Shown: piece after piece, positions 4,205 through 41,485 of the stretch
Layout: every line of letters starts with the position of its first letter
Position numbering within the stretch: the stretch's first letter is position 1
DNA from: an uncultured Chloroflexia bacterium
GTDB lineage: Bacteria > Chloroflexota > Anaerolineae > JAAYZQ01
Direction: 5' to 3'
Assembly (NCBI GenBank): GCA_963700285.1
Contig: CAVOXA010000001.1
Coordinates: forward strand, 544,001 to 608,000
Length of the DNA: 64,000 nt
Made by a program: the position numbers and the translations under genes
The notes under the pieces: model-generated
Database searches by the model: none
Told to the model about the DNA's origin: nothing
The model's input: only the letters and a program-made list of their open reading frames with translations

Positions 4205-4277
4205 TTGACACCAGTACATTAATATGGTATGATTAGTTCAGGATGAATAGCATAGATCAACTACTCAGTACTGAATA
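4205..4277 (+). promoter_or_regulatory. sigma70 promoter plus palindromic operator (site 1)
   Basis: TTGACA 4205-4210, 17 bp, TG-n-TATGAT 4228-4233; operator TACTCAG-TA-CTGAATA 4262-4277. Confidence 0.8.
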
Positions 4278-4314
4278 ATTCTTGACACAGAAATGCTTGC
4301 AAAGGAGCAGTTTC

Positions 4315-5021
4315 ATGAATCATAAAGTTTGAAGGCTTGATCCCCGAAAGCGGAGGCCCATCTCTACCGAGCGACCAGAAAGCGGGAGTCTCCCGCCGGA
4401 CCTTTCTGAAGGTTGGCTTGGGAGGAGGTTTGCTGGTTGCGGTAGGCAGCAGATGGCTCCCTTATTCCCAGGCGCTGGAGCAAGTCGAGAGTGAGTATGT
4501 CCTGATCATCGACCTCAACAAGTGCACCGGCTGTGGCGCCTGCGAGCTGGCCTGCAACCAGCGCAACAACCTCCCCGAGGGCAAGAGCTTCATCCATCGC
4601 TTGCGCAAGGGCGATGACGCCAGATTGCTGGTGTCTTCCGGTCCAGTGCCAGCACTGCCAGGATGCACCTTGCGAGCAAGTATGCCCTGCCAGCGCCACC
4701 TACCATCACCCCAGCGGCGTGGTCCTGGTCAACGATAAGACCTGTGTGGGCTGCAAGTACTGCGCCGTGGCCTGTCCCTACGACGCCCGCGTCTATGACG
4801 AGGAGACAGGCGTGGTGAACAAGTGCTGGCTGTGCCTGGACTGGGTGCTGGGCGGCGGCCAGCCGGCTTGTGTCCAGGCCTGTGTCCAGGGAGCGCGGAT
4901 CTTTGGCCGGCGGGACGATCCCGAGATCGCCGAACTCCTGGCTTCGGGCCGCGCTCAGGCCCTGCATCCCGAATTCGGCACCAAGCCGGGCGTCGTGTAC
5001 TATATCTTTCCCGGCAGCTAG
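4315..5021 (+). CDS. NrfC/PsrB-like 4Fe-4S dicluster protein with TAT signal (frameshifted)
   Basis: SRRTFLK twin-arginine motif; CTGCGACELAC, CQHCQDAPCEQVCP, CVGCKYCAVACPY, KCWLC...PACVQAC. Confidence 0.88.
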
Positions 5022-5048
5022 GCGCAATCGCTGGAACGGAGGTCAACG

Positions 5049-5998
5049 GTGGCTGAACATCATTGGGGCTGGTTGGTCGCAATCTATCTCTTCCTGGGCG
5101 GCATGGGCGCAGGCTCGTTCATCATGGCCTCACTGGTCGAGTTGACCGGCGAGCGATACAAGCACAAATACTGTCCCACGACCATGGTCGGGCGCTGGCG
5201 TCAGCGGCCCGCTGATCCTGATCGGCACGGTCCTGCTCATCTTTGACCTGGGTGCCGGCTTGCGCGAGCCGTGGCGCATCCTCTACATGTTCACCAACTT
5301 CGAGCTCGGTCATGACCTGGGGCATCTGGATCCTGACCCTTTTCCTGCCCATCGCCTTTCTCTATGGGCTCCTGGAGATCATGCACGTCCACCCCGGGAT
5401 CCTGGCCTGGGCGCGCAAGCGGCTGCGCTTCCTGCCCGAGACGCTGCCCTACCGCGGCATCAAGCGTGTGGTGTGCAGCGTGGGCATCGTGCTGGCCGTG
5501 GGCACGGCCATCTATACCGGGGTGCTGCTCAGCGTGGTCAAGGCCGTGCCGCTGTGGAACACGCCGATCCTGCCCGCCCTCTTTCTCGTCTCGGCCATCT
5601 CCACGGGCATGGGCCTGTGCCTTGACCTGTCGGCCACCCTGGCCGTCCCCGAACTCCACCGCCGCTTCAACAACATGCCCCTCGTCCACATGATCCTCAT
5701 CGGGCTGGAGATGGCCCTGCTGGCTCTGCTGCTGATGCACGGCCCTGAACCAGGGCGGAGAGGCGGCCGAATCGGCCCAGCTGATCCTCATCGGGCAATG
5801 GGAGCGTGATCTTCTGGGTGCTGGTCGTCGGCTTTGGCATGTTGTATCCCCTTCATGGTTCACGTCTATGCCTTTGCCCGCAGCAGCCACGGCTACGTCT
5901 CCGGCATCCTGTCAGGAGCGGGGATCGTGATCGCTGGCCTGTTCGTGCGCTACCTGATCGTGGCCGCGGCCATCCCGGTTGGACCTTGGGGTGGCTGA
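5049..5998 (+). CDS. NrfD/PsrC-like polysulfide-reductase membrane anchor (frameshifted)
   Basis: HWGWLVAIYLFLGGMGAG, 'FDLG', 'SVMTWG', 'YTGVLLS..KAVPLWNTPILPALFLVSA'. Confidence 0.88.
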
Positions 5999-6043
5999 GG
6001 CTGGATACCTGCCAGCACGATTTGAACCTCGAAGAGGAGAACA

Positions 6044-7181
6044 ATGAGTCAGAAACTCAGTCTTCGCCGAATCAGAAAGTGGCCACGGTGGACCATCATC
6101 CCCATCGGCCTGGCGCTGGCCGGGCTGGCCATCGTGCTGGGGCTGATGCTGGAGCCGGCGGCCGACGCCCTGAGTCCCGCCACGGTCGAGCCGACGCCCA
6201 CGATGCCGACCATTGCCTACAGCGAGGGCACAAGTCGGACGGCTGCCACGACTGCCACTTTTCGCTGGCGGCACTGCAGGCCAGCGCTGCAGACCCGAGC
6301 ACTGCCGAGACGCTATCTGATCGAGGCCGAGTCGATAGTGACGCCCCACGGCAAGCTGGGCTGCCTGGCCTGCCATGGCGGCGACGGCGAGGCCGCAGGA
6401 CAAGGAGACGGCCCACCAGGGCCTCGTCGCCGACATGAGCGCCCAGGATCCGGAAAAGTGCGTCATCTGCCACGAGGATCTGCCCGACGAGATCCCCAGC
6501 GACCGGCTGCGCGTGCCCCACGGCGACATCGTCGAGCGGCATCGAGCAGGGCGAGCCATGCGACGTCCACTGCAGCGATTGCCACGGCGGCGTGGGCCAC
6601 GGCTTTGACCCGTCTCGGGCGAAAAGTTCTGCTCCATGACCGTCTGCCTGGACTGCCACCAGGAGCAGAAACCTGGAGATCCAGATGGCCGACTGCGATG
6701 CCTGCCACCTCGGCCCGCACGACGTGGCCATCTCGCTCACCTGCAACGACTGCCACACCTCCACTGAAGTGTGGCAGCGAGGTGGACTGCGGCATCCACC
6801 CGTGGCGCTGCCGGGCAAGCATGGCGAGACGGCCTGCTTCCAGTGCCACCAGTATCCCAACTTTAAGGGGCTGAACAACGTCTGCACCGACTGCCACGTG
6901 TCGGGCCACACCGACTGGGGCGATCACGACTGTGCCGAGTGCCACGACCCGGGCGGCACCTGGGACATGACGGCCTCGACCTGGGAAGGCCACGTCGAAC
7001 ACTGGGATCAGTACAAGGGCCAGCACCTCAAGGTGACCTGTGCTGGCTGCCACTTTGAGGGCTACCGACCTCGATCCCAGCTGCACGACCTGCCACACGG
7101 TACCCGAGAGCCACGACGACGGGCGGGCCGAGGATCGACTGCACAGCCTGCCACCAGGCGGACCAGCCGTGGGCGGAATAG
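6044..7181 (+). CDS. membrane-anchored multiheme cytochrome c (~13 CXXCH, frameshifted)
   Basis: N-terminal TM helix; CXXCH motifs spread across frames; paralogous to 23387-24613 (PHG.L.C..CH, RLR.PH, CSDCHGGVGHG). Confidence 0.82.
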
Positions 7182-7231: not shown

Positions 7232-8690
7232 ATGAGCAAAACAAAGAGGTTGCCGAGTATCATGGGGCTGGCAGTCGTGATAGTGCTGCTTGCTCCTGGC
7301 AGCCCTGGTCGCTGACCGGCTGTGCGCCGAGCCGGCGGCCATCGCCGCCGTGGAGCCGACGGCCACCGCTCTATCCCCCACCGCCGACCGACATCCCTGC
7401 CTCCGCCGCCGGGACCGACGCCGGCGGCCCTGGATTTTCCGCTTGCCGGCTCCCACGCATACGGTCGAGGTGGAGCAGGTGGACGACCAGAACTGCGTGG
7501 ATTGCCACACCGACGAGGAGACGTTAAAGGCCATGGCCACAGAAGGAAGAAGAGCCAGGAAGTCGACTCTGAGGGTGAGGGCTGAGGTGGCTCATTGCCT
7601 CCGTTGGAGGCATGGGAAAAGGTCATCCTCAACCAGGAATCGTTCTTTGAGACGGTGCACGGTCGCTATGGCTGCATCACCTGCCACGGCGGGACCGGCG
7701 ACGCGGTCGACAAAGAGGCGGCCCACGAGGGCATGGTCCGCGAGCCCGCTTCGGCTGAGGCCTGCGGCGACTGCCACCCCGACCAGGTGGCCACCGACGG
7801 CGAACAGCCTGCACACCAACCTGGCTGGCTATACGACCGTGCTGGCTGCCCGCAGCGCACCGGACAAGATGGCCCAACTGGACGTGATGATGGACAACCA
7901 CTGCGACAAGTGCCACACCACCTGCGGCCAATGCCACGTCAGCCGGCCCACGAACCTGGGAGGCGGCCTGGTGGCAGGGCCACGAGTTCAAGGGGATCCC
8001 GCCCATGAACCTGACCTGCACCGGCTGTCACGGCAGCCGCATCGAGAACGAGTACAAGGGCAAGAACGAGGGCGTCAAGGCTGATGTCCACTGGATCAAG
8101 GGCGGCATGCCCTGCTTTGACTGCCACTCGGCCGACGAGATGCACGGGGCCCTGGGCGAGTTCGACCACCGCTACGACGGCCCGCCCACACCAGGCTGCC
8201 AGGATCCGAGCTGCCACCCGACGTGGCGGCCGGCGATGGCATCAGCAGCACACCAGGGTACCACTTTGAGGCGCTGAGCTGCCAGGTGTGCCACTCGACC
8301 ACCTACAAGAACTGCTACAGCTGCCACGTGGCCCTGGAGGATGGTACAGCCTACTTCAAGACCGAACCTTCGGAGATGGCCTTCAAGATCGGGCGCAATC
8401 CGCTCCAGAGCGATGACCGTCCCTGGAAATATGTGCCGGTGCGGCACGTGCCCATCGACCGCGATTCGTTCGCCTACTATGGCGAGGATCTGCTGCCCAA
8501 CTTTGACGCGCTGCCGACCTGGAAGTATGCCACACCGCACAACATCCAGCGCATCACGCCGCAGAACGAGACCTGCAACGCCTGCCATGGCAACGCCGAG
8601 TTCTTCCTGACGGCGGACGACGTGGATCCGGACGAACAGGAGGCCAACAAGGACGTCATCGTCGAGGAGCTGCCGTTCTCGATGCCATAG
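7232..8690 (+). CDS. multiheme cytochrome c lipoprotein with probable selenocysteine at TGA 7583-7585 (copy 1; also indel-frameshifted)
   Basis: Signal peptide with 'LTGC' lipobox-like sequence, PT-rich linker, CVDCH, then EGEG-TGA-GGSLPPLEAWEK in the same frame; 10 CXXCH plus one CX4CH; C-terminal FKIGRNP...VRHVP...WKYATPHNIQR. Confidence 0.82.
7586..7616 (+). promoter_or_regulatory. bacterial SECIS-like hairpin (copy 1)
   Basis: TGCCTCC-GTT-GGAGGCA; the G-initiated apical loop begins 17 nt after the UGA; lower stem CTCAT/ATGGG with a bulged U. Confidence 0.72.
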
Positions 8691-8760: not shown

Positions 8761-10284
8761 GTGATGACGATGCCAGCCACGACCAAAACCGACCTGCTGC
8801 TTCTCGGCCTGTTGCTGGACCGGCCCATGCACGGCTATGAGCTGTACCAGCAGATCCAGGCCGAAGGCATTGACCGCTGGTTCAACATCAGTGCCGCCGG
8901 CGTGTACTACTCTCTGCGCAAATTGCGCGATCAGGGACTGGTGGCCGAATCCCGCCAGCGAGCAGGAGGAAGCGCTCGCAAATCTATCTATCGCTTGACC
9001 GAGAAAGGCCGGATCGCCTTCTTTGAAGCGATGGACGTGGAGCTGGCCAACCGGGATGAGATCTATCTGGACTATGACCTGGCCATCTATCTGTTAAACA
9101 AGTATCCTCTGGTACGGGCACTGTCTCACCTGGAGCAGCGCCAGGCTTTTCTTGAAGAACAGGCTCAAGTGGTGCGGTCAGCCGTGACTGCGGAACGAAA
9201 CAATGGTAGCTCGCCCCTGAAACTGGCCATTCTGGACCACAAGCGCCGGTTCCTGGAGATGGAGCAGAAATGGCTGGCCGACGTCATCCAGAATATTCAG
9301 GAGAACGGTGAAAATTCCGGCGTCGAGGAGGGAGGACGGCGACGTCTAATGGTCCTTAGCGGGGAACTGCGTCACTATCACCTGCCTGACCTGATGCGCC
9401 TCATTGTCTCGGGCCGGCACAGCGGTACGTTGAAGGTCACCGATGGGGCAGAACTCCGCACCCTGAGTTTCGAGGGTGGGCAGCCGGTCTATGCTTCCTA
9501 TGTGCGTGCTGGTGAGCCGCCCGTGGCGCTGCCCTCCTGTGATGAGGTACTGGATGGACTGTGCGATCTGTTTCGCTGGCAGGAGGGCCAGTTTACTTTT
9601 GACCAGCAAACAGACCATGAGGAATGGAGCGTGGCTCTGGAATGCAGCGCTGAGGAACTGATGTTGCGGGGCTGCCGCAAAGTGGACAATTGGGCCATCA
9701 TCCAGAACCTGGTTGCTTCTGGCGATGCCATCTTTGAAGTGGGTTCTGCTGCCAGCACGCTGGAACGTCTGACGCTTCTGCCGGGTGAGGAACGGGTGGT
9801 GGCAGCGGTAGATGGCGTCAAGGACGTGGCGACCGTCGCCCGAGATCTGGATCTGACATTGTTTGAGACCAGCCGGATCTTTTACTGTCTGGCCGCCATT
9901 GGGGTGTTGCGTACCGCCGACCTGGACAAGATCCGCTTGCGGCGCGTCTTTCGAGAGATAGCCGAGCTGATATGTACCAGCACCATCCCCTGGCGTGCTA
10001 GCCCGGATGATAGGGCCTGCGAGGAGGAGGTCAACCATAGGGTTAGGCATTTACCTCTGAGGCTGGAAAACGGACGGATGATAGACCTGGCCGATCCCCA
10101 ACTGGGGATGGAGGAACTGAAAGAGATGTATCTCCAGTTTCTGGTGGACCAGTTCCGGGTCATCAGCCAGCGCTTTGGGCACTCGAACGCCCGTCAAGCT
10201 TTCGAACGGGCTTTGCACCAACTGGCGCCTGAGCTACAGGCAGTGGCCAAGCGCTATGGCTTTGATCGACTGACGATTAACTAG
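8761..10284 (+). CDS. PadR-family regulator fused to DUF4388 (PATAN-like) domain
   Basis: LLLLGLLLDRPMHGYEL...VYYSLRKLRDQGLV...YRLTEKGR wHTH; LSGELRHYHLPDLMRLIVSGRHSGTL...FRWQEGQFTF. Confidence 0.85.
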   Translation: MMTMPATTKTDLLLLGLLLDRPMHGYELYQQIQAEGIDRWFNISAAGVYYSLRKLRDQGLVAESRQRAGGSARKSIYRLTEKGRIAFFEAMDVELANRDEIYLDYDLAIYLLNKYPLVRALSHLEQRQAFLEEQAQVVRSAVTAERNNGSSPLKLAILDHKRRFLEMEQKWLADVIQNIQENGENSGVEEGGRRRLMVLSGELRHYHLPDLMRLIVSGRHSGTLKVTDGAELRTLSFEGGQPVYASYVRAGEPPVALPSCDEVLDGLCDLFRWQEGQFTFDQQTDHEEWSVALECSAEELMLRGCRKVDNWAIIQNLVASGDAIFEVGSAASTLERLTLLPGEERVVAAVDGVKDVATVARDLDLTLFETSRIFYCLAAIGVLRTADLDKIRLRRVFREIAELICTSTIPWRASPDDRACEEEVNHRVRHLPLRLENGRMIDLADPQLGMEELKEMYLQFLVDQFRVISQRFGHSNARQAFERALHQLAPELQAVAKRYGFDRLTIN

Positions 10285-10320: not shown

Positions 10321-10722
10321 ATGGCAACGGATCAGAAGGGTGGAAATGGTTGGACGGGGCTTATGCGCTGGACAGCGCGGATCTTGGCTCTGATCGTGGG
10401 CGGTCTCTTTGCGTACTTTGCGGTCGAGTTCGGCGCAAAGGCATTCTCCAGTCTGTCTCTAACTAGCGCTCAGGGCCTGCCTCTGCTGCTTGGCTTGCTG
10501 GTGGCGATCCTGGGCACCCTCATCGCCTGGCGCTGGGAGCTGGTTGGCGGTGTGATGGCCGTGGCTGGTGCGGTTGTCGTCATGGCCCTAGTCTGCGTAG
10601 GGTCGGGCCTTGACATGCTGTACTGTGCTTTCCTGTTCACACTGCCCCTGCTGACGGCTGGCGTCCTATACCTGGGCTGCTGCTGGCAGACGAGGCAGAC
10701 CAGGTCTTTGCACAGCGCATAG
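10321..10722 (+). CDS. small 4-TM membrane protein (paralog 1)
   Basis: RBS GGAGG; hydrophobic; RWTARIL...AWRWELVGG...LYLGCCW. Confidence 0.8.
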   Translation: MATDQKGGNGWTGLMRWTARILALIVGGLFAYFAVEFGAKAFSSLSLTSAQGLPLLLGLLVAILGTLIAWRWELVGGVMAVAGAVVVMALVCVGSGLDMLYCAFLFTLPLLTAGVLYLGCCWQTRQTRSLHSA

Positions 10723-10880
10723 TGTACGGGCTGGGTGAGAGATGGTTCCAAGCCAGTCTGGGATTGGTGTCGGCCATCCCAGCAGGCGATGGCCAGGCGC
10801 CATGGTTGTGACTGGCCAAAGGCTGTTAGAACGGTGTGTATATGTATACTCTGTCTTGAACGTGAAAAAGGAGGTTAATC

Positions 10881-11282
10881 GTGGCAAAGGTTGAGAGATG
10901 TGACAGTGGTTGGACGACGGCCATGCGCTGGACTGCCCGTATCCTGGCTCTGATTGCGGTCGGACTCTTTGTGTACTTTGCCGTTGAGTTCGGCACCAAG
11001 GTCTTTCCGTCGCTGGCTTGGACCAATCCGCAAGGGATCCCGCTCCTGATCGCCCTGGTATTGGCGCTGGCGGGGGTCATCATTGCCTGGCGGTGGGAGC
11101 TGATCGGGGGCATGATCGCGGTCGGTTGCTCTGCAGCGATCATCGCCCTGGTCTGCGCAGGGTCGGGTATGGACATGCTCCTCTGCGCCCTCTACTTTAC
11201 TCTGCCGCTTTTGCTGGCTGGTGTTCTGTACCTGGTTTGCTGCTGGCGGACTAGAAGGGCGTCTCAGTCACAGAGTGCATAG
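10881..11282 (+). CDS. small 4-TM membrane protein (paralog 2)
   Basis: RBS AGGAGG; same length (133 aa) and motifs as 10321-10722. Confidence 0.8.
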   Translation: MAKVERCDSGWTTAMRWTARILALIAVGLFVYFAVEFGTKVFPSLAWTNPQGIPLLIALVLALAGVIIAWRWELIGGMIAVGCSAAIIALVCAGSGMDMLLCALYFTLPLLLAGVLYLVCCWRTRRASQSQSA

Positions 11283-11364
11283 ACACCCGGAGGAAAGGAA
11301 GCGACACGACGGGCAGGAGCATCTTGCTGGCTGCCAAGATTGGTCGCGGGCGCAAATAGCGCGC

Positions 11365-11958
11365 CTAGGGGTGCAGATGCTGGTCCAGATGTTGGTGTCT
11401 TTCCTCAAACATCTGCATGACTAGCAGGAACTTGACCGGGCGGTCATTTACATTCTGCCAGCGGTGGGGTAGATCAGCGTGGAAAAGCAGGGCATCACCC
11501 GCTGAGAGGTGGTGGTGCTCGCCATCGATCTCATAATCAAGTTCACCCTCGAGGCAGAAGACCAACTCGTGTCCGGAATGGACCATTACTCTTTTTCCAC
11601 TGCTGGCACCGGCCTCCATGGTGACCATGAAGGGGTCGCATGCCTGCTGCTCCAGGCCATAGCCGATGCTTTCCAGGACGACGCTGGCGCTTCCGGAGCG
11701 AGCACGCGCGCCAGCCCGAGTGAGGATAACCCCCTTTTTCTCCACTGGTCCTGTGAAGAATGACGTGATGGGTACCCCCAGGGCCATGGCCAGACGGTGC
11801 AGGGTGGATACGCTGGGAGAAGTCACGCCTCGTTCGATCAGGCTGATAGTATTGGGTGAAAGATCGCAGAGTTCGGCTAACGCGCGCAGCGAAAGACCGC
11901 GCTGGCCACGCAGTTCCTTCAAATACGTCCCAACGTCCGGGGTTTGTTGTTCGCTCAT
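11365..11958 (-). CDS. XRE-family HTH plus cupin transcriptional regulator
   Basis: LRGQRGLSLRALAE...ISLIERG..SPSV; cupin H-S-G-H-E...PHRWQN. Confidence 0.9.
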   Translation of the reverse strand: MSEQQTPDVGTYLKELRGQRGLSLRALAELCDLSPNTISLIERGVTSPSVSTLHRLAMALGVPITSFFTGPVEKKGVILTRAGARARSGSASVVLESIGYGLEQQACDPFMVTMEAGASSGKRVMVHSGHELVFCLEGELDYEIDGEHHHLSAGDALLFHADLPHRWQNVNDRPVKFLLVMQMFEERHQHLDQHLHP

Positions 11959-11981: not shown

Positions 11982-13188
11982 CTACCTCAATCCAGGATTA
12001 TACCACGGCTGTGCGTAGGGACCGGAAAGGCTACCGCTCGGAGATTGGCCGGTAGTGCGACGCGCATCCGGCAGGGTCTCAAAACTGACATCCCGTAGCA
12101 AGCCCAACACCAGGTTATTGATAGCGGCCATCGCTTGTGCTCCTTGGCCCTTCAATCTGCAGCGATCCTCTTTTAGGGTATCATCGCGACGGAAATGAAG
12201 CCCGTTTTCAATGCCCAATGACCACGATTAAGCGCTAACAGTCGGTCCGCATTCGCCTCATCTCTTGTCAGGCTGCTTACGCCATACGAGACTTCCTGGA
12301 AGACCTTGTCATCCGAGGTGCGTACAAAATGGCGTTCTAGACGGAAGACCTGCTCGCAATCAGGCCACTTTACATACTCCTTCAGCATGCTACTGCTGGT
12401 CAGGGTTCGTCGTTCCCGGCGGCCATGTCCTTTTCCATGAGTGGTTGCCGTCTGGAAATCTTTGTGACACGGACTGAATCCACCGGTGCACATTTCGGGC
12501 TCAAACAAGGTTTCGATGTCTCGTTTCAACTGCCCCTGATTGTCCTTCACCCTCCAGACATAGTCCCCACCATCTTCCACTATCGCCATCGATAGCTCCC
12601 GCTGCGTCAACAATGCGTCGCCGGTCACTACTTTTCCTCGCAAATCAAGCTGTTTGATGGCTCGCATGGCGGCTGGAATCTCGTTTTCGTGGCTACCCAC
12701 CTCGACCTGAAACGCGACCCAGCCCTCTTCCGGCAAATATGCGCTTAGTAGATGAACACCTCTAGTTTTACCCTCCGGGATCGTGGCCCGCATCGTCTTG
12801 CCATCCAGATTGATCAGAATGCTTTGTCCTGTCCCCGGCTGCTCCTGAAAGAAATCACGGACTACTTGTTCAAAGGCATCAATGTCTATTGCCTTGTTCA
12901 GAACGCGGCTGTACGTCGTGGCGTGTGGTGCTCGCGCCTTGGACAGCCCCAGGGCCTCGGCCAAAACCTCTTTGCGGAGCGCTACCCACTGTGCAATCCC
13001 GCGTAGATGGTCTTCTCCACTCAGCTTGGCCAGGACGATGAATACCAATACGGTCACCAAGGTGAGCGCAGCCCGCGCGCATCACGTCGATCCTGGAGCT
13101 CGGCCAAGGCGGCGAACAAACTGTCCAAATCAATGACGAGTCCTTCGGGCCTCAGATTGACATCGAACGAAAGCGGAATATACTTCAT
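11982..13188 (-). mobile_element. ISAs1-family transposase (frameshifted)
   Basis: DRRDARG, IVLAKLSG, LDGKTMR, HLLSAY, ENEIPAA, VTGDALLTQ, VKDNQ, RGHW.IEN.LH..RD...EDRCR; RBS AGGAGG before the ATG at 13188. Confidence 0.9.
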
Positions 13189-13701
13189 CTTGCCCCTCCT
13201 TGGTTCCTGGGTTGCTCATCACTCTCCCAATACCAAGGTAGGGGCTTTTTTCACACTGTCCGCAGAGTTGCCAATCTGGATGTCACGGGTAATCAGGTTT
13301 GTCGCTCGCGGCCGACTTGTTTGACTTTCTGCTGCGAAGCACCTTAAGGTCAGGCCTGGATGTCACCGACCAGGCCGAGTAACTGGTTCATACGATCCTC
13401 GGTACGGGCCGGCGCATCATTGAGCTGTGGATCCCCCTCGTGCTCCAGATACCTTGGCGCAGCCACCAGCGATCTCGAGGCTGTGACAGGGGACCTGAGT
13501 CCGTGCACCAGCATTGTAGCCAGGTAACGTCTCTGGCTTGTCTCGTTCGATACAGGGTCCAGAAAAGCCCGGGATCATCTGGAAATTGACCGCGCTGTTT
13601 GGTTCCACGATGCACGTGCATTTCTGCTTGCGTGACTTGACATGGCACAGTCCCTGGTGTAGAATACATTCATCTATTGGAATATTCAGGAAGGAGCATG
13701 A

Positions 13702-14073: not shown

Positions 14074-14151
14074 CTCGTTCCATTATTCGGGTAGATCCTC
14101 AATCCTGTGAATCTGCGGGTGAACAGCTGGCAGAGACCGATGGAGGTCGAT

Positions 14152-15648: not shown

Positions 15649-15712
15649 ACCAGACTGGATCTTGAGGTACCAGCATTCATATGCTGAGCTTTATACTGGA
15701 AGGAGAGTTTGT

Positions 15713-15983: not shown

Positions 15984-15995
15984 AGGAGGCGACAA

Positions 15996-16253: not shown

Positions 16254-16268
16254 TCAAGGAGGCAAAAC

Positions 16269-28509: not shown

Positions 28510-28519
28510 GCAGGTTGGC

Positions 28520-30080: not shown

Positions 30081-30112
30081 AACTGCCGGGCAAAGGTGCG
30101 ACCGTCACCCGA

Positions 30113-32208: not shown

Positions 32209-32287
32209 GCCCACAAACGACCTCCCACGGCGCAATTATAGCATCAAAGTGCGCATCTCACAATTGACGTCGTGGAGATTGCCGTTT

Positions 32288-32533: not shown

Positions 32534-35015
32534 ATGAAGTGGAAAACTGGATTGATTGTGGTAGCGGCCTTGCTCCTTCTGGCCATCCCCGTGGCCCTGA
32601 CCGTGGGAGCTGCGCCAGAGAATGGCATCACATCCCCTGCTTCGGGGGAAGCCGTAAAGGGCGAGGTCTCCATTGAGGGGACTGCCACAGACCCAAATTT
32701 CTGGAAGTACGAGTTGCACTATGGCCCGGATCCCAACCCTGACGGCATGTGGTTGGACCTCTTGGCACCCCAGGGCTATGTTGATTTGGCTGTGGTTGAG
32801 GGGGAATTGGGCAAGTGGGATACCACCATGGTTGAGGATGGCATCTATATCCTCAAGCTGCGCGTGGTGCGCAACACAGGCCAGTACGATGACCTCCTGG
32901 TGGAGGGTGTCAAGGTGGCCAATGCTGGTGATGCAGTGCCTCCAGCTGACGAACCCGCTGACGCCGAGCCTGCAGACGCTGAGCCTGCAGCCGCTGAGCC
33001 TACAGCGGCTGCCACGGAAGAACCTGAGGCAGCCGAAGAGCCCGCGGCTCCCGTAGAGACGAAGGAACTGGAGGTTCCTTTTGAGGACATGTGGGCTGGC
33101 TCGCCGCACGCCGATGCCTCAGCCGAGGCTTTCCGCCACTGGGACGAGGACGATCCAGCCGTCGTGCCCGCAAGCTGTGCCAAGTGCCACAGCGAGGGCG
33201 GCTTCCAGGACTTTCTGGGAGCCGACGGCAGCGAGGCACGGGTTGTCGATAGCGATCACGACATCAATACCGTAGTTTCCTGCGTCGCCTGCCACAACGA
33301 TGCGACGGCGACCTGGGATACGGTGGTCTTCCCCTCCGGGGCCGAGATCACCGGCCTGGGGTCGGAGGCGCGCTGCATGGAATGCCACCAGGGCCGGGCT
33401 TCGACGGTCTCTGTTGACGAGGGCATCGCCGAGGCGGGCCTCGAGGACATGGACACCGTCAGCGAGGACCTGGGCTTCACCAACATCCACTACTTTGCTG
33501 CCGCCGCGACCATGTACGGCACGCTGGCCAAGGGCGGCTACCAGTACGAGGGCAAGACGTACGACGGCAAGTTCGACCACGTCGACGGCTTTAACACCTG
33601 CATCGATTGCCACAACCCCCACACGCTGGAGCTCAAGGTCGACGACTGCGCCGCATGCCACACCGAGCAGCGACTCCAAGGACATCCGCATGCAGGGTTC
33701 CCTGGTCGACTATGATGGCGACGGCGACATGGAGGAGGGCATCTACTACGAGGTCGAAGGCCTGCAGGAGATGCTCTACGAGGCCATGCAGGCCTACGGC
33801 GCTGAGGTAGCCGGGCACGCCCATCGTCTACGACTCGCACAGCTACCCCTACTTCTTTATCGACACCGATGCCGACGGCGAGGTAGACGAAGACGAGGCT
33901 GTTCTCGCCAACGCCTACAACGCCTGGACTGGCCGCCTGGCCAAGGCCGCCTACAACTACCAGACCTCCCTGAAGGACCCGGGCGCCTACGCCCACGGCG
34001 GCAAGTACATGATCCAGCTTCTGTACGATTCCATCGAGGATCTGAACGCGGCCCTGTCCGAGCCGGTCGACCTGTCGAGCGCCAACCGCATCGACCACGG
34101 CCACTTTGCCGGTTCCGAAGAGGCATTCCGACACTGGGATGAGGACGGTGCTGTGCAGGGTAGCTGTGCCAAGTGCCACTCGGCCGCGGGCCTGCCCTTC
34201 TTCCTGGCTGAAGGAGCCAATGTCACCCAGCCGATCTCCAACGGGCTGCAGTGTGCGTCCTGCCACAGCGACCTGGAGACCTACGCTATCCACGAAGTGG
34301 CGTCAGTAGAGTTCCCCAGCGGCGCTGAGGTCGACAGCGGTGACCCCAACACCAATCTGTGCATCAACTGCCACCAGGGCCGCGAGTCCACGGCCAGCGT
34401 CAACCGCAGGATCGGTGATGCTGCGGACAATGATGTGACAGAGGGCTTGGGCTTTGCCAACGTCCACTACTTTGCCGCCGGCGCCACGCTGTTCGGCGAT
34501 GAGGTACAGGGCGCCTACCAGTTCGACGGCAAAGAGTATGCAGGCAAGAACGCGCACGTCGCCCGGCTACGCCAACTGCACCGAGTGCCACAGCGCCCAC
34601 ATGCTGGAGGTCAAGACCGACGAGTGCAGCGACCTGCCACGCGGGCATCGAGGACGTAGCCGACATCCGCATGGACAGCACCGACTATGACGGCGATGGC
34701 GACACGAGCAGTGGAATGTCCGTCGAAGTCGACCAACATGGCCGATGCGCTGTACGCTGTCTCCAGGACTATGCGGCTAGCACCGAGGGTGTCAGCGGCA
34801 TCGAGTACGACGCCCATGCCTACCCCTACTTCTTTGACGAAGAGGGCGAGCGCTATGCCACCTGGACGCCGGCGCTGCTGCGAGGGGCCTACAACTACCA
34901 GTACGCCCAGAAGGATCCCGGCGCCTTTGCCCACAACCCCAAGTACGTCATCCAGGCGCTGTACGACAGCATGGAGCATCTGGGTTGTGACGTGAGTGGC
35001 ATGACTCGACCCTAA
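32534..35015 (+). CDS. secreted multiheme cytochrome c with duplicated pentaheme module (~10 CXXCH, frameshifted)
   Basis: Signal peptide, Ig-like N-domain, acidic linker, then two 'EAFRHWDED...SCAKCHS...CHQGR.S...N.HYFAA.AT' modules. Confidence 0.85.
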
Positions 35016-35416
35016 GTGGCCTGACCGACGTGGGCTTGTTTGGTCGAGCGGTGACCGGCTTGCTCCACAAAAGTTATGCTTGTGATGAAATCGCGCCCGG
35101 CAGGCCAGCCTGCTGGGCGCGTTGCTTGTTAAGGAGCGCTTGAGGCGTACTGGCAGGCGTCGAGTCAAGACAAGGCAAGCTCCAGGGCATTGGTAAGTGC
35201 TGCGTGCAACTCTGTGGAGGGCACAGTCGCGGTCTTACCTTTCGGGCCAGCCCCTGGGCTTCGACAGATTGACTTGTCGAGACGGCTGAGATGTGGTATG
35301 GTATGCACGTGTTCCCAACCATCCACCTTGCGAGAATGAACCTGCTTGCTTTCATAGGTATGGCTATGGCCGTCTGAGGACGTGGACCTATCTGTGGCCG
35401 ATAACGGGGGTAAGGG

Positions 35417-35900
35417 ATGAGCGACTCAGTAGAATCGAAAGAAGTCGGGACGCAGGATGGATCCGTCAGCCGTCGAGGCTTTCTCAAATACGGATTGTTG
35501 GGCTTCTCTGGGCTGGCAACGGCCGTTGGTGTCCTGACACCCGTCGTCGCCTATCTTTGGCCTCCGAAAGTGGGGGCCAGTGGATCAGGGGGGCGGGTGA
35601 CTGTGGCGTCAACGAAGGACCTGGCCCCGGGGGCGGGTGGGGTCTATTCGGTTGCCAACAAACCGGTGATGGTGATCCACACCGTCGACGATGAATATGT
35701 AGCCCTGTCAGCGACCTGCACGCATTTGGGCTGCATTCTCTTCTGGGATGTCGAACAGGCAGGTGATCGCTTGCCCGTGTCACGAAGCCTACTTTAACAC
35801 CACCGGTGCCGTGATCTCGGGACCGCCACCTTCTCCGCTTGAACCCTATCGGATCCAGGTTGAGGGGGACGAGATCGTTGTAGAGGGAGGCCAGGGCTAA
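35417..35900 (+). CDS. Rieske 2Fe-2S protein (TAT signal; frameshift ~35760)
   Basis: SRRGFLK; CTHLGC; 'CPCH' in the next frame; GPPP.PL. Confidence 0.9.
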
Positions 35901-36578
35901 TGGAAGCACAATCTCGCGTCAAGTGGTCGACACGGATAGGGGATTGGTTCGATGAACGTTTCGATGTCCGCATCCCCCTGCAAGCCTTTCTGAAAAAGCC
36001 GGTACCCAAGCACGCCATCAAATGGTACTTTTGTCTGGGTGGGATTACCTTCTCCCTATTCCTCATCCAGGGTGTTACGGGTATTCTGCTCTCCTTGTAC
36101 TACAGGCCAACGACAGAAGGGGCCTACGAGAGCATTCTGTTCATCATGAACAACGTTCGCTTTGGCTGGCTGATCCGCAGCATCCACTCCTGGTCCTCGA
36201 CCTTGATGATTGCCTTCTGTATAGGCGCACATGCTGCGAGTATTCATCACCGGTGCGTACAAGAACCCGCGCGAATTGAACTGGGTTGCCGGGGTCGCGC
36301 TCCTGTTGCTGACGCTGGCCTTTGGTTTCACAGGCTACCTGTTGCCCTGGGATCAGAAAGCGCTATGGGGGTCAACGGTGGGCAGCGAGATCCTGAGTGT
36401 CGTTCCGCTGATTGGTGGCTGGCTTCTCGGTCTGCTGCGCGCGGGTATGGAGATCACCGGCTTGACATTGACCCGCTTCTACGGGATCCACATGCTGGTT
36501 CTGCCTCTTCTGGCCTTCATCTTCCTGGCAGTCCACTTTATTATTATTCGTCGCCAGGGGATCTCGGGCCCTCTTTAG
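35900..36578 (+). CDS. cytochrome b/b6 N-terminal subunit (frameshift ~36225)
   Basis: LGGIT...[47 protein letters not shown]. Confidence 0.92.
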
Positions 36579-36602
36579 ACCGGTAACAAGGAGGCTACTG
36601 TC

Positions 36603-37076
36603 ATGGAGAATGGTGCAGAGCAAATGACCCAGCCCGGGAGCGAGCGACCACGCCGGTACAAACATCCCGAATACCGGGAAGAGGATACCATACCCTTCTT
36701 TCCCAACTATGTAATCCTCGAGGTCATCGTCAGCTTCCTTGTGCTGGCTCTCTTGATCGTGCTTGCCTCATTGCTGCCCGTCGGTTTGGAGGAAAAGGCG
36801 GATCCCTTCAGTACACCACAACACATCAAGCCAGAGTGGTATTTCCTGTGGATCTACCAGTTCATCAAGGTGCCGTCTCTCCTCATCGGCCCGGGTGTCT
36901 TGGCCGCGATGGCGGGCATCTTTATCCCGGCGATTGGTATCCTGCTCTTGTTCCTTCTGCCCTTTCTGGACCGCAGACCGGAGCGCCATCCGCGGGATCG
37001 AAAACTGGCCATGGTCATCGCTGGGTTGATCGTGATCTTTTTCGTCGCAATATCGATCTGGGGCTGGTACAGTTAG
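36603..37076 (+). CDS. cytochrome b C-terminal subunit (subunit IV-like)
   Basis: PFFPN, ADPFSTP.HIKPEWYFL, LPFLDR. Confidence 0.92.
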   Translation: MENGAEQMTQPGSERPRRYKHPEYREEDTIPFFPNYVILEVIVSFLVLALLIVLASLLPVGLEEKADPFSTPQHIKPEWYFLWIYQFIKVPSLLIGPGVLAAMAGIFIPAIGILLLFLLPFLDRRPERHPRDRKLAMVIAGLIVIFFVAISIWGWYS

Positions 37077-37088
37077 GGGGTGAGGACT

Positions 37089-38762
37089 ATGCGCATCATC
37101 CGGGTCATTCCAATGTTTGTGTTGCTTGTCCTCTTTCTGCTCGCCGGGACCTCGGCCTACGGCCTCCCGCTGTTGCAGATCCCGGCGGTTCCCCACCCGG
37201 TAGAGGGTCGGGACGATTGCTTGGCCTGCCACGACACGGGCCAGGTGGCTGCCTTCCCCGAGGATCATGAAGGCCGGGCAAATGAAACCTGCACCATGTG
37301 CCATGAGGCTCCCGAGGCTGGAGCCATGCCGCCGGTTCCCCACCCGATAGAGGGTCGAGATGATTGTTTGGTTTGTCACGACGAGGGCCAGTTGATGCCC
37401 TTTCCCTCAGACCACGAAGGTCGGCCTAATGAGGGCTGCCTCGACTGCCACGAGCTTGGCGAGGCCGAGGCGCCCCAGCCCACACCCGAACCCACGGCGA
37501 CGCTGCCACCGTCAGTCCAGGTCGTGCCTACCCCGATCCATGAGCCCGTCTTGTTCGAAGAGAATACCTGCGTCTCGTGCCACCGGGAACTAGGTGGGAA
37601 GCATGCCGAGATCACGACTGACTGGGAGGAGGGTATCCACGCCGCCCAGGGCGTAGGGTGTGTAAGCTGTCATGGCGGCGATCCAACGCAGGCGGACGCC
37701 GAGGCGTCGATGTCGCCCGAAGCCGGCTACTTGGGTCCCCTGCCCAAGGATCGTATCCCAGGCTTGTGTGGATCTTGCCACACGGACGTGGACTTGATGC
37801 GACCCTTTAATCTGCCGACCGATCAACTGGACCAGTACTGGCAGAGCCTGCACGGGCAGGCGCTCCTTGAGGGCGATGAAAACGTGGCGACCTGCTTTGA
37901 CTGTCATGACGGGCACAAGGTCCTAAAGACCTCGGACCCTGCATCCCAAGTGTACCCCAGCAACGAACCGGCGATGTGCGCGGGCTGCCACGGCGACGAC
38001 ATGATGATGGAACCCTATCACATTCCCACGGACCAATATGACCTTTACCAAATGAGCGTACATGGTGAGGCTTTGCTCCAGGAACAAAATCTGCGTGCGC
38101 CTACCTGTTCTACGTGTCATGGGACGCACGGCGCTGCACCACCGGGCTACCAGCAGGTGGCCAACGTGTGTGGCCAATGTCATACAGCCACGCAGGAATA
38201 CTATATGGAGGGAGCGCACCGAACCGGCATGACCGGGGAAGCCGCCCCACGCTGTGTCACCTGCCATGGCCGGTACGATGTCATGCCCGCCACGCGGGAG
38301 CTGTTTGTTGGCTCGGAGGAGCGGCATTGCGGCAGTTGCCACCCGTCCGACAGTGAGATTGGCGGGCAGGTGGAGGCGATGTACAACGCGCTGAAAGAAG
38401 CCGATGCGGTCTATGAGCAGGCAGAGGCTACCATTGCCCTTGGTGCTGAAAAACGGCTGATCATGGCTGAACAGGAGGAACTGCTCCAGAGGGCCAACAC
38501 ACCCCTGATCGAGTCCCGAGCCATGCAGCACACGGTCAACCTGGAGGAGGTTCAAGCCAAGGCTGAGGAGTCGTTGATGCTCAGCCGGGAGGCGACGGCC
38601 TCTGCTGAAGCAGCTTTGAAAGAGTTGGACACCCGTCGCCTGGGCATGATCATTGCGCTGGGCTTTATTCTCCTCACGATCGTGGCTCTGGTTCTCATCA
38701 AGCGCCAATTGGATCGGGATCTGCAGGCAGAGCGCGCACCAGCTCGTGACGACTCGGCCTAA
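37089..38762 (+). CDS. multiheme cytochrome c (13 CXXCH) with C-terminal TM anchor
   Basis: Signal peptide, two 'PHP.EGRDDCL.CH...DHEGR.NE.C..CH' repeats, 9 further hemes, coiled region, TM. Confidence 0.92.
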   Translation: MRIIRVIPMFVLLVLFLLAGTSAYGLPLLQIPAVPHPVEGRDDCLACHDTGQVAAFPEDHEGRANETCTMCHEAPEAGAMPPVPHPIEGRDDCLVCHDEGQLMPFPSDHEGRPNEGCLDCHELGEAEAPQPTPEPTATLPPSVQVVPTPIHEPVLFEENTCVSCHRELGGKHAEITTDWEEGIHAAQGVGCVSCHGGDPTQADAEASMSPEAGYLGPLPKDRIPGLCGSCHTDVDLMRPFNLPTDQLDQYWQSLHGQALLEGDENVATCFDCHDGHKVLKTSDPASQVYPSNEPAMCAGCHGDDMMMEPYHIPTDQYDLYQMSVHGEALLQEQNLRAPTCSTCHGTHGAAPPGYQQVANVCGQCHTATQEYYMEGAHRTGMTGEAAPRCVTCHGRYDVMPATRELFVGSEERHCGSCHPSDSEIGGQVEAMYNALKEADAVYEQAEATIALGAEKRLIMAEQEELLQRANTPLIESRAMQHTVNLEEVQAKAEESLMLSREATASAEAALKELDTRRLGMIIALGFILLTIVALVLIKRQLDRDLQAERAPARDDSA

Positions 38763-38964
38763 GAGCCTTTAGGCAGGGCACAGACAGTGCGAATGTGGGC
38801 ACTAGTGGGTTAGGAGCGCAGCTACAGAGCTGGCGCCAGTACAGGTCATAGCCGGGCGGGCCCGTCCAGCACCTGGACCGCTCCTTTGTGTTCGCGCGTG
38901 TGGCTGCGTCCTCGGTCTGCTCGCCCACCATCTGAGGCGATGCCACCCAGCCACAGCAGCGCAT

Positions 38965-39028
38965 TTGACACCGGAAGTACGGTATGTTATACTCTGGCCG
39001 ACTATGCTAGACTACTCAGGGCTGAGTA
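38965..39028 (+). promoter_or_regulatory. sigma70 promoter plus perfect palindromic operator (site 3)
   Basis: TTGACA 38965-38970, 17 bp, TG-n-TATACT 38988-38993; TACTCAG-GG-CTGAGTA 39013-39028. Confidence 0.82.
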
Positions 39029-39079
39029 ATTGAGGCGGTGGATTGCCGGGATAAGGTGATAGACTTGTCGCCGGCCCAT

Positions 39080-39108
39080 TTGACACGGTTTTCACCATCT
39101 AGTATAAT
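39080..39108 (+). promoter_or_regulatory. second, consensus sigma70 promoter
   Basis: TTGACA, 17 bp, TATAAT. Confidence 0.7.
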
Positions 39109-39165
39109 CCAGAGACAGAGTATTGCGATCAGAGACTGATCGCGTTGCTGCACTGGGAGGTGTAT

Positions 39166-41485
39166 GTGACTGATTCAATGGAGAGGAAGGTCGACTCGAC
39201 CGAGCAAGTGTCCGAGCCGGCGGAGAGCAAGACTGGCTCGACGGGGCTGCCGTCCGAGCCAAACGGCAAGAAGGGCGGGAACGGCAAGCGGGCTGTACGG
39301 CTGGGTGTGATTATCGGTGCGGCCTTTATCATTGGCTTCATCGTGTTTGGCGTCATCGCCATCATGGTCTGGGACTATTCCAACAGTGTAGCCTTCTGCG
39401 CCGATGCCTGTCACGATGTACACCCCGAAGAGATCCACGCCTTTAGGGACTCGTACCACGCCAACGTCAGGTGCACCGAGTGCCACATGGGCCGGGTAGG
39501 TACTCTCAACAACATTGTCCTCAAGGCCAGCCACGCTCGCCATCTGCCCGAAGTGATCTTTGACTCCTACGACCGCCCCCTGGAATCGGCGACGATGCGC
39601 CCCGCCAACGAGTCCTGCGAACTCTGCCACTTTCCTCCTGCTTTCCACGGCGATACCGTCCGGAAAGTCACGCGCTTTCAATCGGATGAGGAAAACACAG
39701 AGAAGGATACCTATCTGATCCTCAAGACCGGGGCGGGCACACGGAATGAGGGCCTGGGCTACGGCATTCATTGGCACATCACCAATCCTGTGGAGTATAT
39801 TGCCGGGGACGAGCACAAGCAGGACATCCGCTGGGTGCGGACGACGCTGCCTGACGGCCGGACCGTGGAGTACAGCGATGTCACCAACCCCCTGACACCG
39901 GAGGAGATCGAAGCCGCCGAAAAGAAGACCATGGACTGCGTCGATTGCCACAACCGCATGGGCCATCCCTTCCCCTCTCCAGAAGACTTGGTGGACCAGG
40001 CTTTGGCCGACGGGAGTCTGAGTTCAGATCTGCCCTATGCCAAGGAATCAATGCTGGACCTGCTCTCGGCCGACTATGAGACCCAGGAGGCGGCCCTGGA
40101 GGCTGCGGCTGCGACCAGGGAGCAGTACGAGGCTGCATACCCTGAGGCAGCGGCCGCTTACCCGGAGGAGATAGACCAGGCTCAGCAACTGGCTGAGGAA
40201 CTGATTAAACGATTGATATTTGAGGAGCCGGGCGTTACCTGGCAGTCCTTCCCGGACGACAACAAGCACAAGGACTTTCCCGGCTGCTTCCGCTGCCACG
40301 ACGGCAACCATGTGAGCGAAGAGGGTGAGTCGATCCGGCTGCAGTGCAATATCTGTCACAGTGTGCCAGCAACAGTGGAGGCGGGGGACCGTCCGCCACA
40401 GCTGCCGCTGGCCTACATCCAGGAGCCAGCGTCGCACCTGGAAACCAATTTCATGGCCGACCACCGCTTCCAGGCGAACGGTGACTGCGAGGAGTGCCAT
40501 GGCGAGATTGCCTTTGGCAGTGACGACTCCTCCTTCTGTGCCAACTCGTCCTGCCACGGAAAGGCCTGGCCGATGGTTGAGCTGGATGCTGCTTTTGAGC
40601 ACCCCATCGAGCTGGAGGGCAAGCATGCGGAGGTTTGGTGCCACGACTGCCACGAGGGGGTGCGGGAACCCGAATACGCATGTGCCAACTGCCACGAGGC
40701 ACCCCAGCCCCACTTTGGCGACCTGTGCGAGGACTGCCATACGCCGGCCGGCTTTGAGGGAGCGGACATGGGCAACTTTGAGCATCCCGTGCCCGCTGGA
40801 CGGCGCTCACGCCAACACTGGTTGTAGCGATTGTCATGTTGAGGGCCGGGAGCTGACCGGCTCCTGCGCCGACTGCCACCAGCCGCCCAGCGAGCCCCAC
40901 TTTGGGCCCAACTGCGAGGACTGCCACACGCCAACGGACTTTGCCGATGCAACTTTGCCAGCCGAGCTGCACCCGGTGGCGCTGGAGGGTGCCCACCTGA
41001 CTGCCTCCTGTGACGGATGCCATGTCGAGGGCCAGGAGATGCCCGAGTTTGTGTGCAGCAACTGCCACGAGCCACCCCAGGACCACTATGGCCTCAACTG
41101 TGAGGACTGCCACACGCCAACTAGCTTTACCGATGCCAGTCTGCCGGCGGGAATGCATCCAATTGCGCTGGAGGGCGCCCACGCGACGGCTAGCTGCGGT
41201 GCCTGTCACGTCGAAGGTCAGGAGATGCCCGAGTTTGTTTGTAGCAACTGCCACGAAGCGCCGGACAACCACCTGGCAGGTGAGTGCGAAACCTGTCACA
41301 AGCCTGAGGGCTTTGCCCGATCCGCTGCTCTCCTGGTGAATCTGGCGCCGCCGATCGAACACGATCTCTCTGGACGGGACAACTGCCTGGCATGCCACGA
41401 TCCAGAGGGACAGATCAAGCCTGCACCATCCAACCACATCGAGTATGAGAACGAGCAGTGCACCCTTTGTCATAAGGCTGAGTAA
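39166..41485 (+). CDS. NapC/NirT-like quinol dehydrogenase fused to a long multiheme tail (~20 CXXCH plus 2 atypical; frameshift ~40790)
   Basis: TM then 'YSNSVAFCADACH..H..E...S.HA.V.CTECH'; GIHWH; MDCVDCHNR.GH; GCFRCHDG; repeated HP..L.G.H triheme units. Confidence 0.88.

Follow-up and report, generated by a model that had tools for sequence, protein, structure and literature searches.

A candidate cell-surface sulfur reductase built around selenocysteine multiheme cytochromes and rhodaneses in an uncultured Anaerolineae bacterium

What does a sediment bacterium of the Anaerolineae (Chloroflexota) do with some 95 heme sites encoded side by side? The question is raised by a 37-kb gene cluster at positions 4205-41485 of a 64,000-nucleotide stretch of DNA (the window, G000:C1:544001-608000) from the 7.05-Mb, 89% complete assembly GCA_963700285.1 of an uncultured Chloroflexia bacterium (G000). 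The cluster encodes two multiheme cytochromes whose reading frames are crossed by a UGA codon (Sec-cytochromes, Sec standing for selenocysteine), two tandem rhodaneses, several further multiheme cytochromes and the membrane modules discussed below. Counted on the coding strands, the heme sites amount to ~95 (88 intact CxxCH, 4 CX3-4CH and 3 broken by indels), distributed over the genes in order as 13, 11, 11, 15, 10, 13 and 22. With 89 six-frame motifs this is the densest 37 kb of the genome, the next-densest holding 13 and the median 2, and the cluster is the genome's main multiheme depot. A first-pass annotation, made from the sequence alone, had described an "island" carrying about 90 or more heme motifs and a single electron wire ending at the Sec site. 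The heme count held, and every listed part of the cluster was recovered by Pfam or profile matches and motif counts; Pfam matches comprise NrfD (two), 4Fe-4S proteins (two), rhodaneses (two, with two domains each), DUF4388 (two), Rieske, cytochrome b, subunit IV and the NapC/NirT N-terminus. Close homologs that bear names come from Anaerolineae or Chloroflexota.

Sec-cytochrome 1 (7233-8690) and Sec-cytochrome 2 (21713-23259, with a Pro/Thr stalk), both on the plus strand, are predicted lipoproteins with 11 heme sites each: 10 CxxCH and one CX4CH in the former; 8 intact CxxCH, one CX4CH and two indel-broken sites in the latter, which has 10 CxxCH in the congener G001. The in-frame UGA codons (7583-7585, between hemes 1 and 2 of Sec-cytochrome 1, and 22142-22144) both sit in the motif EGEG-U-GG and are followed by hairpins (7596-7612 and 22155-22171) resembling a selenocysteine insertion sequence (SECIS). 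A scan of GTDB genomes found relatives of the Sec-cytochrome at 478 places; locus counts given here refer to the best 80 of these 478, 34 of which span at least 15 kb (long loci), and genome-level counts to 61 relatives, 20 with a Sec-cytochrome and 41 without. Across the 80 loci the Sec codon is TGA in 77, TGG in one, TTG in one and cut off in one, and never TAA or TAG. The stem starts ten bases past the UGA, and the G opening the loop, which is invariant, lies 17 nt from it. All five stem pairs are intact in 77 of 77 sequences, including 14 with a double change from G:C to C:G and one from T:A to G:C, and the Pro codon within the stem hardly varies (CCT in 76 of 77; entropy 0.1, compared with 1.3-1.9 for five control codons). 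At -18.6 and -16.5 kcal/mol, the two hairpins satisfy the bacterial SECIS model, which calls for a G in the first two loop positions, a loop 16-37 nt from the UGA and a minimum free energy of at most -7.5 (PMC13188914). Cys stands at the Sec position in 8 of 11 distant homologs, the 11 having been picked for a Cys near the site, and selA, selB and tRNA-Sec were all found in G000 above cut-offs. In addition, a short-read RNA contig (21928-22182) crosses the UGA at 22142 unchanged, its sole difference from the assembly being at 22003. Both in-frame UGAs thus almost certainly encode selenocysteine, as the first-pass annotation had proposed from the letters. The presence of selA in 55 of the 61 relatives makes its co-occurrence with the cytochrome uninformative.

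The RNA contigs come from four sediment metatranscriptome runs; such contigs neither rank genes nor prove transcription, and some may stem from DNA carry-over. Rhodanese 1 is matched exactly by contigs of 795 and 854 nt, without difference; contigs also cover parts of Sec-cytochrome 2 and, in all four runs, the secreted decaheme cytochrome. Contig cover is absent at, and hence uninformative for, the nrfC operon, the Rieske block and the flank at 41.4-43.3 kb. Single-base indels are abundant in the G000 assembly, and most genes of the cluster lie in pieces. These broken frames are most likely assembly errors, because the short-read RNA contigs differ from the assembly by single-base indels at 10 places in cluster genes (22183, 22635, 22852, 23113, 33667, 33811, 34561, 34629, 34730 and 34757), several of them in two to three runs. 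The neighbouring proS gene is likewise frameshifted, with 9 single-base gaps relative to G001 within 1.5 kb, and on both grounds a cluster of pseudogenes was ruled out. G001 is syntenic with the cluster and both flanks at 80-91% identity, several of the broken genes form one frame there, and this congener served together with other loci as an intact proxy for the genes broken in G000.

The designation as an island in the first-pass annotation is not supported. Its GC content (0.605) and tetranucleotide distance (51st percentile of 181 windows) are typical of the genome, and synteny with G001 continues through the flanks. The two Sec-cytochrome copies fall into sister clades in a quick tree, and at least three other genomes retain a pair of these paralogs, which also argues against a horizontally acquired island. 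In the same tree a single clade of Actinomycetota, mostly Acidimicrobiia, is nested among Chloroflexota sequences (Shimodaira-Hasegawa-like approximate likelihood ratio test support, 97; loci L074, L077, L078, L082, L084, L087, L090, L093, L098, L099, L101, L102, L113 and L122).

The gene-neighbourhood comparison that the first-pass annotation had suggested tied the Sec-cytochrome most firmly to rhodaneses. The two tandem rhodaneses of the cluster, rhodanese 1 (18950-20110, plus strand, two CYTGHT loops) and rhodanese 2 (20200-21300, plus strand, two CYTGQT loops), each carry a signal peptide and a VPETG sorting tail. Rhodaneses occur within 8 kb of the cytochrome in 62 of the 80 loci and in 32 of the 34 long ones (59 and 30 at a stricter cut), with only six other rhodanese places in the 7 Mb of G000. 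At E <= 1e-30, the rhodanese family of the cluster was found in 16 of the 20 genomes with the cytochrome and in none of the 41 without it. Cytochrome and rhodanese are fused in P0152 and P0182, and the two loci in which Sec has been lost, L055 (Trp instead) and L070 (Leu instead), have no rhodanese despite 8 kb of upstream sequence. Because of these neighbour and genome counts, and those for the quinone modules given below, the conserved core is the cytochrome plus the rhodanese, with an exchangeable quinone module and with the decaheme/Rieske block as a separate module. As to Sec-less relatives, the Sec position of 21 long homologs is taken by Trp (15), Gly (3), Leu (1) or another residue, with all hemes kept; these paralogs (P0057-P0123) and those at L055 and L070, mostly with Trp, are possibly non-catalytic wires that lost selenium. 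Elsewhere in G000, rhodanese matches at G000:C1:436245 and C1:1541378 contain two TGA each, reflecting either frameshifts or Sec forms.

Both parts of this core are predicted to face the outside of a cell without an outer membrane. Each rhodanese ends in VPETG followed by a hydrophobic stretch and RRR, making up two of the seven such tails in the genome, and five sortases are encoded elsewhere in G000; selB (G000:C10:2126954-2130232) adjoins one of these sortase genes. No Omp85 was found in G000 or in four relatives (five of five genomes searched). Together with the lipoprotein prediction for the cytochromes, these observations bear out the surface anchoring by lipid and sortase that had been suggested for a monoderm cell.

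What, then, is the Sec-cytochrome related to? When its AlphaFold model was compared by VIA-align with 48,161 chains, the top match was octaheme tetrathionate reductase (OTR; PDB 1SP3; Z 3.9, root-mean-square deviation 6.5, 239 residues), while Foldseek returned no match at E <= 0.001. Profile-profile alignment by hhalign against 17 TIGR04315-matching Chloroflexota proteins (16 over the cut-off) gave 98% and a score of 105.6, with hemes 3-9 of the Sec-cytochrome collinear with hemes 1-7 of OTR; none of 50 controls reached this score (25 column shuffles, maximum 70.8; 25 block permutations, maximum 91.9). Sec-cytochromes are thus likely to be distant homologs of OTR, as judged from these alignments. 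In this alignment heme 4 of the Sec-cytochrome falls on OTR heme II, which carries a Lys56 ligand (PMC3769277). Heme II is the catalytic heme of OTR, and the enzyme also provides a precedent for S-S reduction. The kinship is nonetheless remote: only 4 of 67 family members match TIGR04315 weakly (best E 7e-5; cut-off 375 bits) and none in G000, the Sec-cytochromes differ from OTR in having three more hemes and the Sec loop, and the heme II Lys ligand was not seen conserved. Searches of PDB sequences returned no true relative, and the ESM Atlas returned generic multiheme clusters only. A Sec-bearing OTR annotated in GenBank (WP_331457571.1) does appear in Table 1 of PMC13188914; the Sec-cytochrome family is not in that table of the prokaryotic selenoprotein inventory, the BSepDB family table lying outside this comparison. 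Nor did our search, from which subscription papers were outside, find a paper on the family.

The closest functional parallel lies instead in Geobacter sulfurreducens. Its extHIJKLMNOPQS cluster encodes a rhodanese, a Sec-cytochrome, multiheme cytochromes, Rieske and cytochrome b/subunit IV proteins (PMC5877670), and its Sec-cytochrome MccSep (ExtKL, GSU2937-2936, NF040886) is a polysulfide reductase required for S0 respiration; it has five hemes, a Cys239 that ligates a heme, and Sec325 within an Ig-like domain at the C-terminus (PMC13510729). Like this system, the present cluster combines an exported multiheme cytochrome bearing one Sec with rhodanese, multiheme, Rieske, cytochrome b and subunit IV genes, so that the analogy drawn in the first-pass annotation stands at the level of function. 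Homology of the two enzymes is not supported. NF040886 had no match in G000, in full-length P0093 or P0081, or in any of the 67 family members (E <= 0.01), and ExtKL kinship, for which the first-pass annotation had called for a profile comparison, was dropped. Matches to ExtN/ExtM (E down to 2e-13 in 14 of 67 and 4e-10 in 49 of 67) were far under the cut-off and set aside as generic CxxCH similarity. MccSep was not among the VIA-align or Foldseek rows, its inclusion in those libraries not being established. Unlike MccSep, the Sec-cytochromes have 11 hemes rather than five, Sec near the N-terminus rather than in a C-terminal Ig-like domain, and no heme-ligand Cys. Where the ext cluster has a periplasm and a porin to work with, the present one is predicted to use lipid and sortase anchors; it also adds NrfC/NrfD-type modules and PadR-DUF4388 regulators. 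Its rhodanese family also differs, with no match to ExtH (NF040901) or to the ExtI porin among 36 cluster pieces, and an ExtH-type rhodanese is therefore not part of the likeness. The cytochrome b pieces score 84 and 152 bits against ExtP in two pieces (cut-off 290) and 29 against ExtQ (cut-off 150).

Two membrane modules could connect the Sec-cytochromes to the quinone pool. The first precedes Sec-cytochrome 1 on the plus strand and consists of an NrfC/DsrO/TtrB-like 4Fe-4S protein with a twin-arginine translocation motif (4315-5021, frameshifted in the assembly), an NrfD/PsrC-family membrane subunit (5049-5999, frameshifted, end approximate) and 13-heme cytochrome A (6044-7181, 13 motifs), which has an N-terminal hydrophobic anchor and is one 398-aa frame in G001. 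Its gene order, nrfC-nrfD-multiheme relay-catalytic cytochrome, resembles that of NrfABCD. In Wolinella, polysulfide reductase PsrABC works with the rhodanese Sud; like that system, the cluster has an NrfD/PsrC plus NrfC/PsrB quinone module and an exported rhodanese. Unlike PsrABC it has no molybdopterin subunit, none of 13 PF00384 matches falling within the window, and so the Sec-cytochrome would fill the catalytic slot. An NrfC/NrfD-type pair lies near the Sec gene in 29 of the 80 loci and 14 of the 34 long ones; the neighbourhood predicted by the first-pass annotation is therefore frequent for NrfC/NrfD, yet the pair is missing in 20 long loci, and PadR-DUF4388 accompanies 18 of the 80.

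The second module, on the minus strand, comprises an NrfD-family subunit resembling HybB/HmcC joined to a 15-heme cytochrome (15 motifs; 23387-25746, split by a likely indel error) and a HybA/HmcB-like 4Fe-4S protein (25743-26690). The membrane subunit and the 15-heme protein are one 791-aa open reading frame (ORF) in G001. Its best profile scores, all below cut-off, are to HybA/HybB or HmcB/HmcC (HmcB, 273 against 420 bits; PRK10881, 280 against 450 in G001). The expected two NrfC/NrfD modules with 13- to 15-heme partners are thus present, with the correction that the second resembles HybAB/HmcABC and is fused; unlike those systems, it has no adjacent hydrogenase subunit. NiFe hydrogenases and cytochrome c assembly genes are present in G000. 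A HybA/HybB pair directly follows the cytochrome in L073, L079, L085 and L096, and in the first three of these the cytochrome has extra hemes and a hydrophobic tail. L014 is a variant of the same kind as L073, L079 and L085, with extra hemes and/or a C-terminal membrane anchor and a HybA(/HybB)-like gene directly behind the cytochrome.

The remaining multiheme genes lie at the far end of the cluster, on the plus strand. They are a secreted 10-heme cytochrome with two 5-heme repeats (32534-35016; 9 motifs and one broken); a block encoding a Rieske protein, a cytochrome b split into an N part and subunit IV, and 13-heme cytochrome B, which has 13 motifs and a C-terminal anchor (35417-38762); and an NapC/NrfH-like 22-heme membrane cytochrome (39145-41485; 20 motifs and two longer ones), which is one 789-aa frame in G001. 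NapC-like and decaheme genes each lie near the Sec gene in 6 of the 80 loci and Rieske genes in 2. The secreted decaheme was found in 10 of the 20 relatives with a Sec-cytochrome and 14 of the 41 without, and G000 has a second homolog of it at G000:C10:1716436. We propose that the decaheme and Rieske/cytochrome b genes make up an electron-transfer module of their own, extracellular in function and under separate regulation, which is often but not always nearby.

Transcriptional control probably links the two ends of the cluster. The palindrome TAYTCA-N4-TGARTA was spotted by eye at 4262-4277 and 18828-18843, on which sites the pattern was built; a third copy, left out of the pattern definition, was found at 39013-39028. 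These are the only exact copies in the 7.05 Mb, preceding nrfC, rhodanese 1 and the napC-like gene, and six permuted patterns had no match in the genome. All three are kept in G001 and lie 20-29 nt behind near-consensus sigma70 promoter-like sites on the plus strand (4205-4233, 11/12; 18774-18802, a perfect 12/12; 38965-38993, 11/12), which is the position of a repressor site. With one mismatch allowed, the palindrome occurs in 15 of the 18 loci with PadR-DUF4388 and in 2 of the 62 without it; the reversed pattern, used as a control, occurs in 1 and 3, respectively. Nine of the 61 genomes have an exact copy, including 7 of the 11 that encode PadR-DUF4388. Of the 15 exact sites, 11 belong to clusters of this kind and 4 do not. 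The cluster itself encodes two such regulators, at 8761-10284 (plus strand) and at 17180-18701 (minus strand, frameshifted, divergent from rhodanese 1), of which the palindrome is the predicted operator. Since the palindrome lies at both ends and tracks PadR-DUF4388, the two ends are likely one regulon; the dedicated regulation claimed in the first-pass annotation is supported by this regulator and by the palindrome common to the first and last operons. Even with one mismatch allowed, the palindrome was not found before the hybA, decaheme or Rieske genes, nor before any of 10 napC-like genes outside the genus. This distribution suggests that PadR-DUF4388 controls both Sec/rhodanese operons and, in this genus, the NapC-like wire as well. 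Our literature search found no paper on the regulator family. Two exact palindromes, L188 (G013:C283:3535) and L189 (G004:C34:6790), lie off cluster genes in genomes having the regulator, representing either chance or a further regulon. On contig G002:C222 (L175), PadR-DUF4388, palindrome, NrfC, NrfD and 13-heme genes run as far as the contig end; that genome (81% complete) yielded no Sec-cytochrome, probably because of an assembly gap.

The chemistry probably involves sulfane sulfur, in whichever direction. On balance we favour a reductase that works at the cell surface on polysulfide or another form of sulfane sulfur and is convergent with the ext cluster of Geobacter. In such a reductase, the rhodanese cysteines (CYTG[HQ]T) would gather sulfane sulfur outside the membrane and hand it to the lipid-anchored cytochrome, where the selenolate, carried on the flexible, acidic loop that separates heme 1 from heme 2, would attack the S-S bond, perhaps at heme 4; Sec alone would then do what Sec325 and Cys239 do in MccSep. 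Quinol electrons would reach Sec-cytochrome 1, occupying the place of PsrA or NrfA, through NrfD, NrfC and the 13-heme protein, and Sec-cytochrome 2 through the HybA/HybB-15-heme or the NapC-like 22-heme module. PadR-DUF4388 would repress the nrfC, rhodanese and napC-like operons.

A number of observations weigh against a sulfur reductase of this kind. Electron transfer from menaquinol to polysulfide is uphill, Rieske/cytochrome b proteins suit high-potential acceptors, heme-copper oxidases are encoded in the genome, and the NrfC/NrfD pair is missing in the 20 long loci noted above. The 80 loci are kin, biased to close relatives, and hence not independent. As for the active site, selA was not found in G053 (88% complete), a relative carrying the cytochrome, and the scaffold persists without selenium in the 21 Sec-less long homologs. 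In 74 of 75 Sec forms there is no Cys outside the heme motifs, and thus no counterpart of the heme-ligand Cys of MccSep. The Sec-cytochrome has 11 conserved non-motif His (H141 and H323 being poorly kept in Cys forms); with one such His per heme, every heme could be bis-His ligated, which would leave none open for catalysis. The AlphaFold model has a predicted local distance difference test score (pLDDT) of 71.7, with the Sec loop (residues 25-38) below 50. Finally, the Z score of the OTR fold match is weak, and single-sequence control cytochromes reach 94-95% against OTR over 23-70 columns.

A rival reading has the same parts work in the opposite direction, or in disproportionation. Here the Sec-cytochrome would oxidise sulfide or polysulfide, leaving sulfane sulfur bound to the rhodanese; the electrons would enter the quinone pool through HybA/HybB and then travel by way of the Rieske, NapC-like and decaheme proteins to Fe(III), humics or oxygen. 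The HybA/HybB- or HmcB/HmcC-like scores of the second module count for oxidation, because HybA/HybB in hydrogenase-2 reduce quinone; the napC-like gene shares the palindrome, and heme-copper oxidases are present. Desulfurivibrio, moreover, couples sulfide oxidation to multiheme-based Fe(III) reduction with a rhodanese transcribed or upregulated (PMC12545173). Nevertheless, oxidation seems unlikely: dsrA was not found in the 89% complete G000, both characterised analogues (MccSep and OTR) are reductases, and decaheme and Rieske genes are rare near the Sec gene.

The broader claim of the first-pass annotation, that the whole 37 kb is a single respiratory machine with every multiheme wire ending at the Sec site, fares less well. 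The full synteny in G001, the palindrome at both ends and the loci L046, L056, L058, L067 and L068, where the Sec-cytochrome is again joined by NapC-like and decaheme genes and by HybAB or Rieske, speak for it, as does the Geobacter ext cluster, which also joins Rieske/cytochrome b to a Sec-cytochrome (PMC5877670). The decaheme, however, also occurs without the Sec-cytochrome (14 of 41 relatives vs 10 of 20 with it) and has its own sensor kinase, Rieske genes adjoin Sec genes in 2 of 80 loci, the palindrome is missing before the decaheme, Rieske, hybA and extra-generic napC-like genes, and a passenger block sits in the middle. We therefore regard a single machine as improbable; of the proposed wire, the ext-cluster analogy and the Sec/rhodanese tie stand, and the convergence of all 37 kb on Sec is not supported.

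It is about equally doubtful that the cluster serves scavenging or detoxification, not sulfur respiration, with tetrathionate/thiosulfate or selenite/tellurite as the substrate. The relation to OTR, the ArsR/ArsP/thioredoxin block within the cluster and the reduction of selenite as well by MccSep (PMC13510729) would suit such a role; the ArsP block lies near a Sec gene in 1 of 80 loci, and ~95 hemes with two quinone modules look like high flux. That the TGA is a true stop or damage, so that a lipoprotein with one heme would be made apart from a 10-heme protein or the genes would be pseudogenes, can be dismissed as very improbable: databases do split the gene there (most of the 120 matches are listed at ~361 aa), the assembly has many errors and TGAGG could act as a ribosome-binding site, but the codon is TGA in 77 loci and never another stop, the hairpin covaries, Cys, Trp and Leu homologs run through without break, the downstream part has no signal peptide and the short-read contig spans 22142 unchanged.

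The rest of the cluster and its flanks hold further genes. Behind the first Sec operon lie two DUF7670 genes (plus strand) and an XRE-cupin regulator (minus strand; together 10321-11958), DUF7670 genes following this operon also in 5 of the 80 loci. The region from 12.0 to 16.8 kb is a passenger block. It begins with an insertion sequence (12006-13252, minus strand; DDE_Tnp_1 transposase at 12173-13060) that is absent from G001 and continues with ArsR, an ArsP/SO_0444-like permease and four thioredoxin-like ORFs (13702-16792, plus strand); the one locus of 80 with ArsP near the Sec gene is that of the congener. The ArsR/ArsP/thioredoxin-like block has its own promoter-like site (13637-13665), and one thioredoxin-like ORF weakly matches the selenoprotein models TsoC/TsoX, without UGA. 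Between the HybA-like and decaheme genes lie two NarL/HisKA_3-type two-component pairs (27850-32235), of which the sensor kinase at 30928-32235 (minus strand) has a His-bearing membrane domain, accompanies the secreted decaheme in 9 of the 17 regions compared and is possibly a redox or heme sensor. A C-terminal catalase remnant (window 41486-41794) directly follows the napC-like gene, G001 having a full catalase-peroxidase a few kb further on. The minus strand at window 44800-44874 and 56133-56299 carries genes for tRNA-Arg(TCG), tRNA-Ala and tRNA-Leu, the tRNA-Arg lying 3.3 kb past the cluster end.

Selenium-dependent polysulfide reduction on a multiheme cytochrome was first shown in 2026, with MccSep (PMC13510729), and the present locus offers an enzyme non-homologous to MccSep in a matching gene setting, in bacteria where Omp85 was not found. 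New at this locus are the two-paralog layout, the core/accessory split, the OTR link and the operator. Gene callers split the Sec-cytochrome in two, and its relatives stand at as many as 478 places in GTDB genomes. The predicted operator is a direct handle on the PadR-DUF4388 regulator family. More tentatively, Chloroflexota and Acidimicrobiia may have evolved a second selenium-heme sulfur reductase independently of MccSep: an OTR-derived 11-heme lipoprotein whose Sec caps the catalytic heme, fed by sortase-anchored rhodaneses on a monoderm surface, served by interchangeable quinone modules and held by a PadR-DUF4388 repressor with its own operator. Anaerolineae are usually regarded as fermenters. 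If they do reduce sulfur, they would join cryptic sulfur cycling, with the rhodanese and cytochrome pair as a marker, and if the reductase did arise independently, the abundant Anaerolineae of sediments would be overlooked respirers of S0 and polysulfide.

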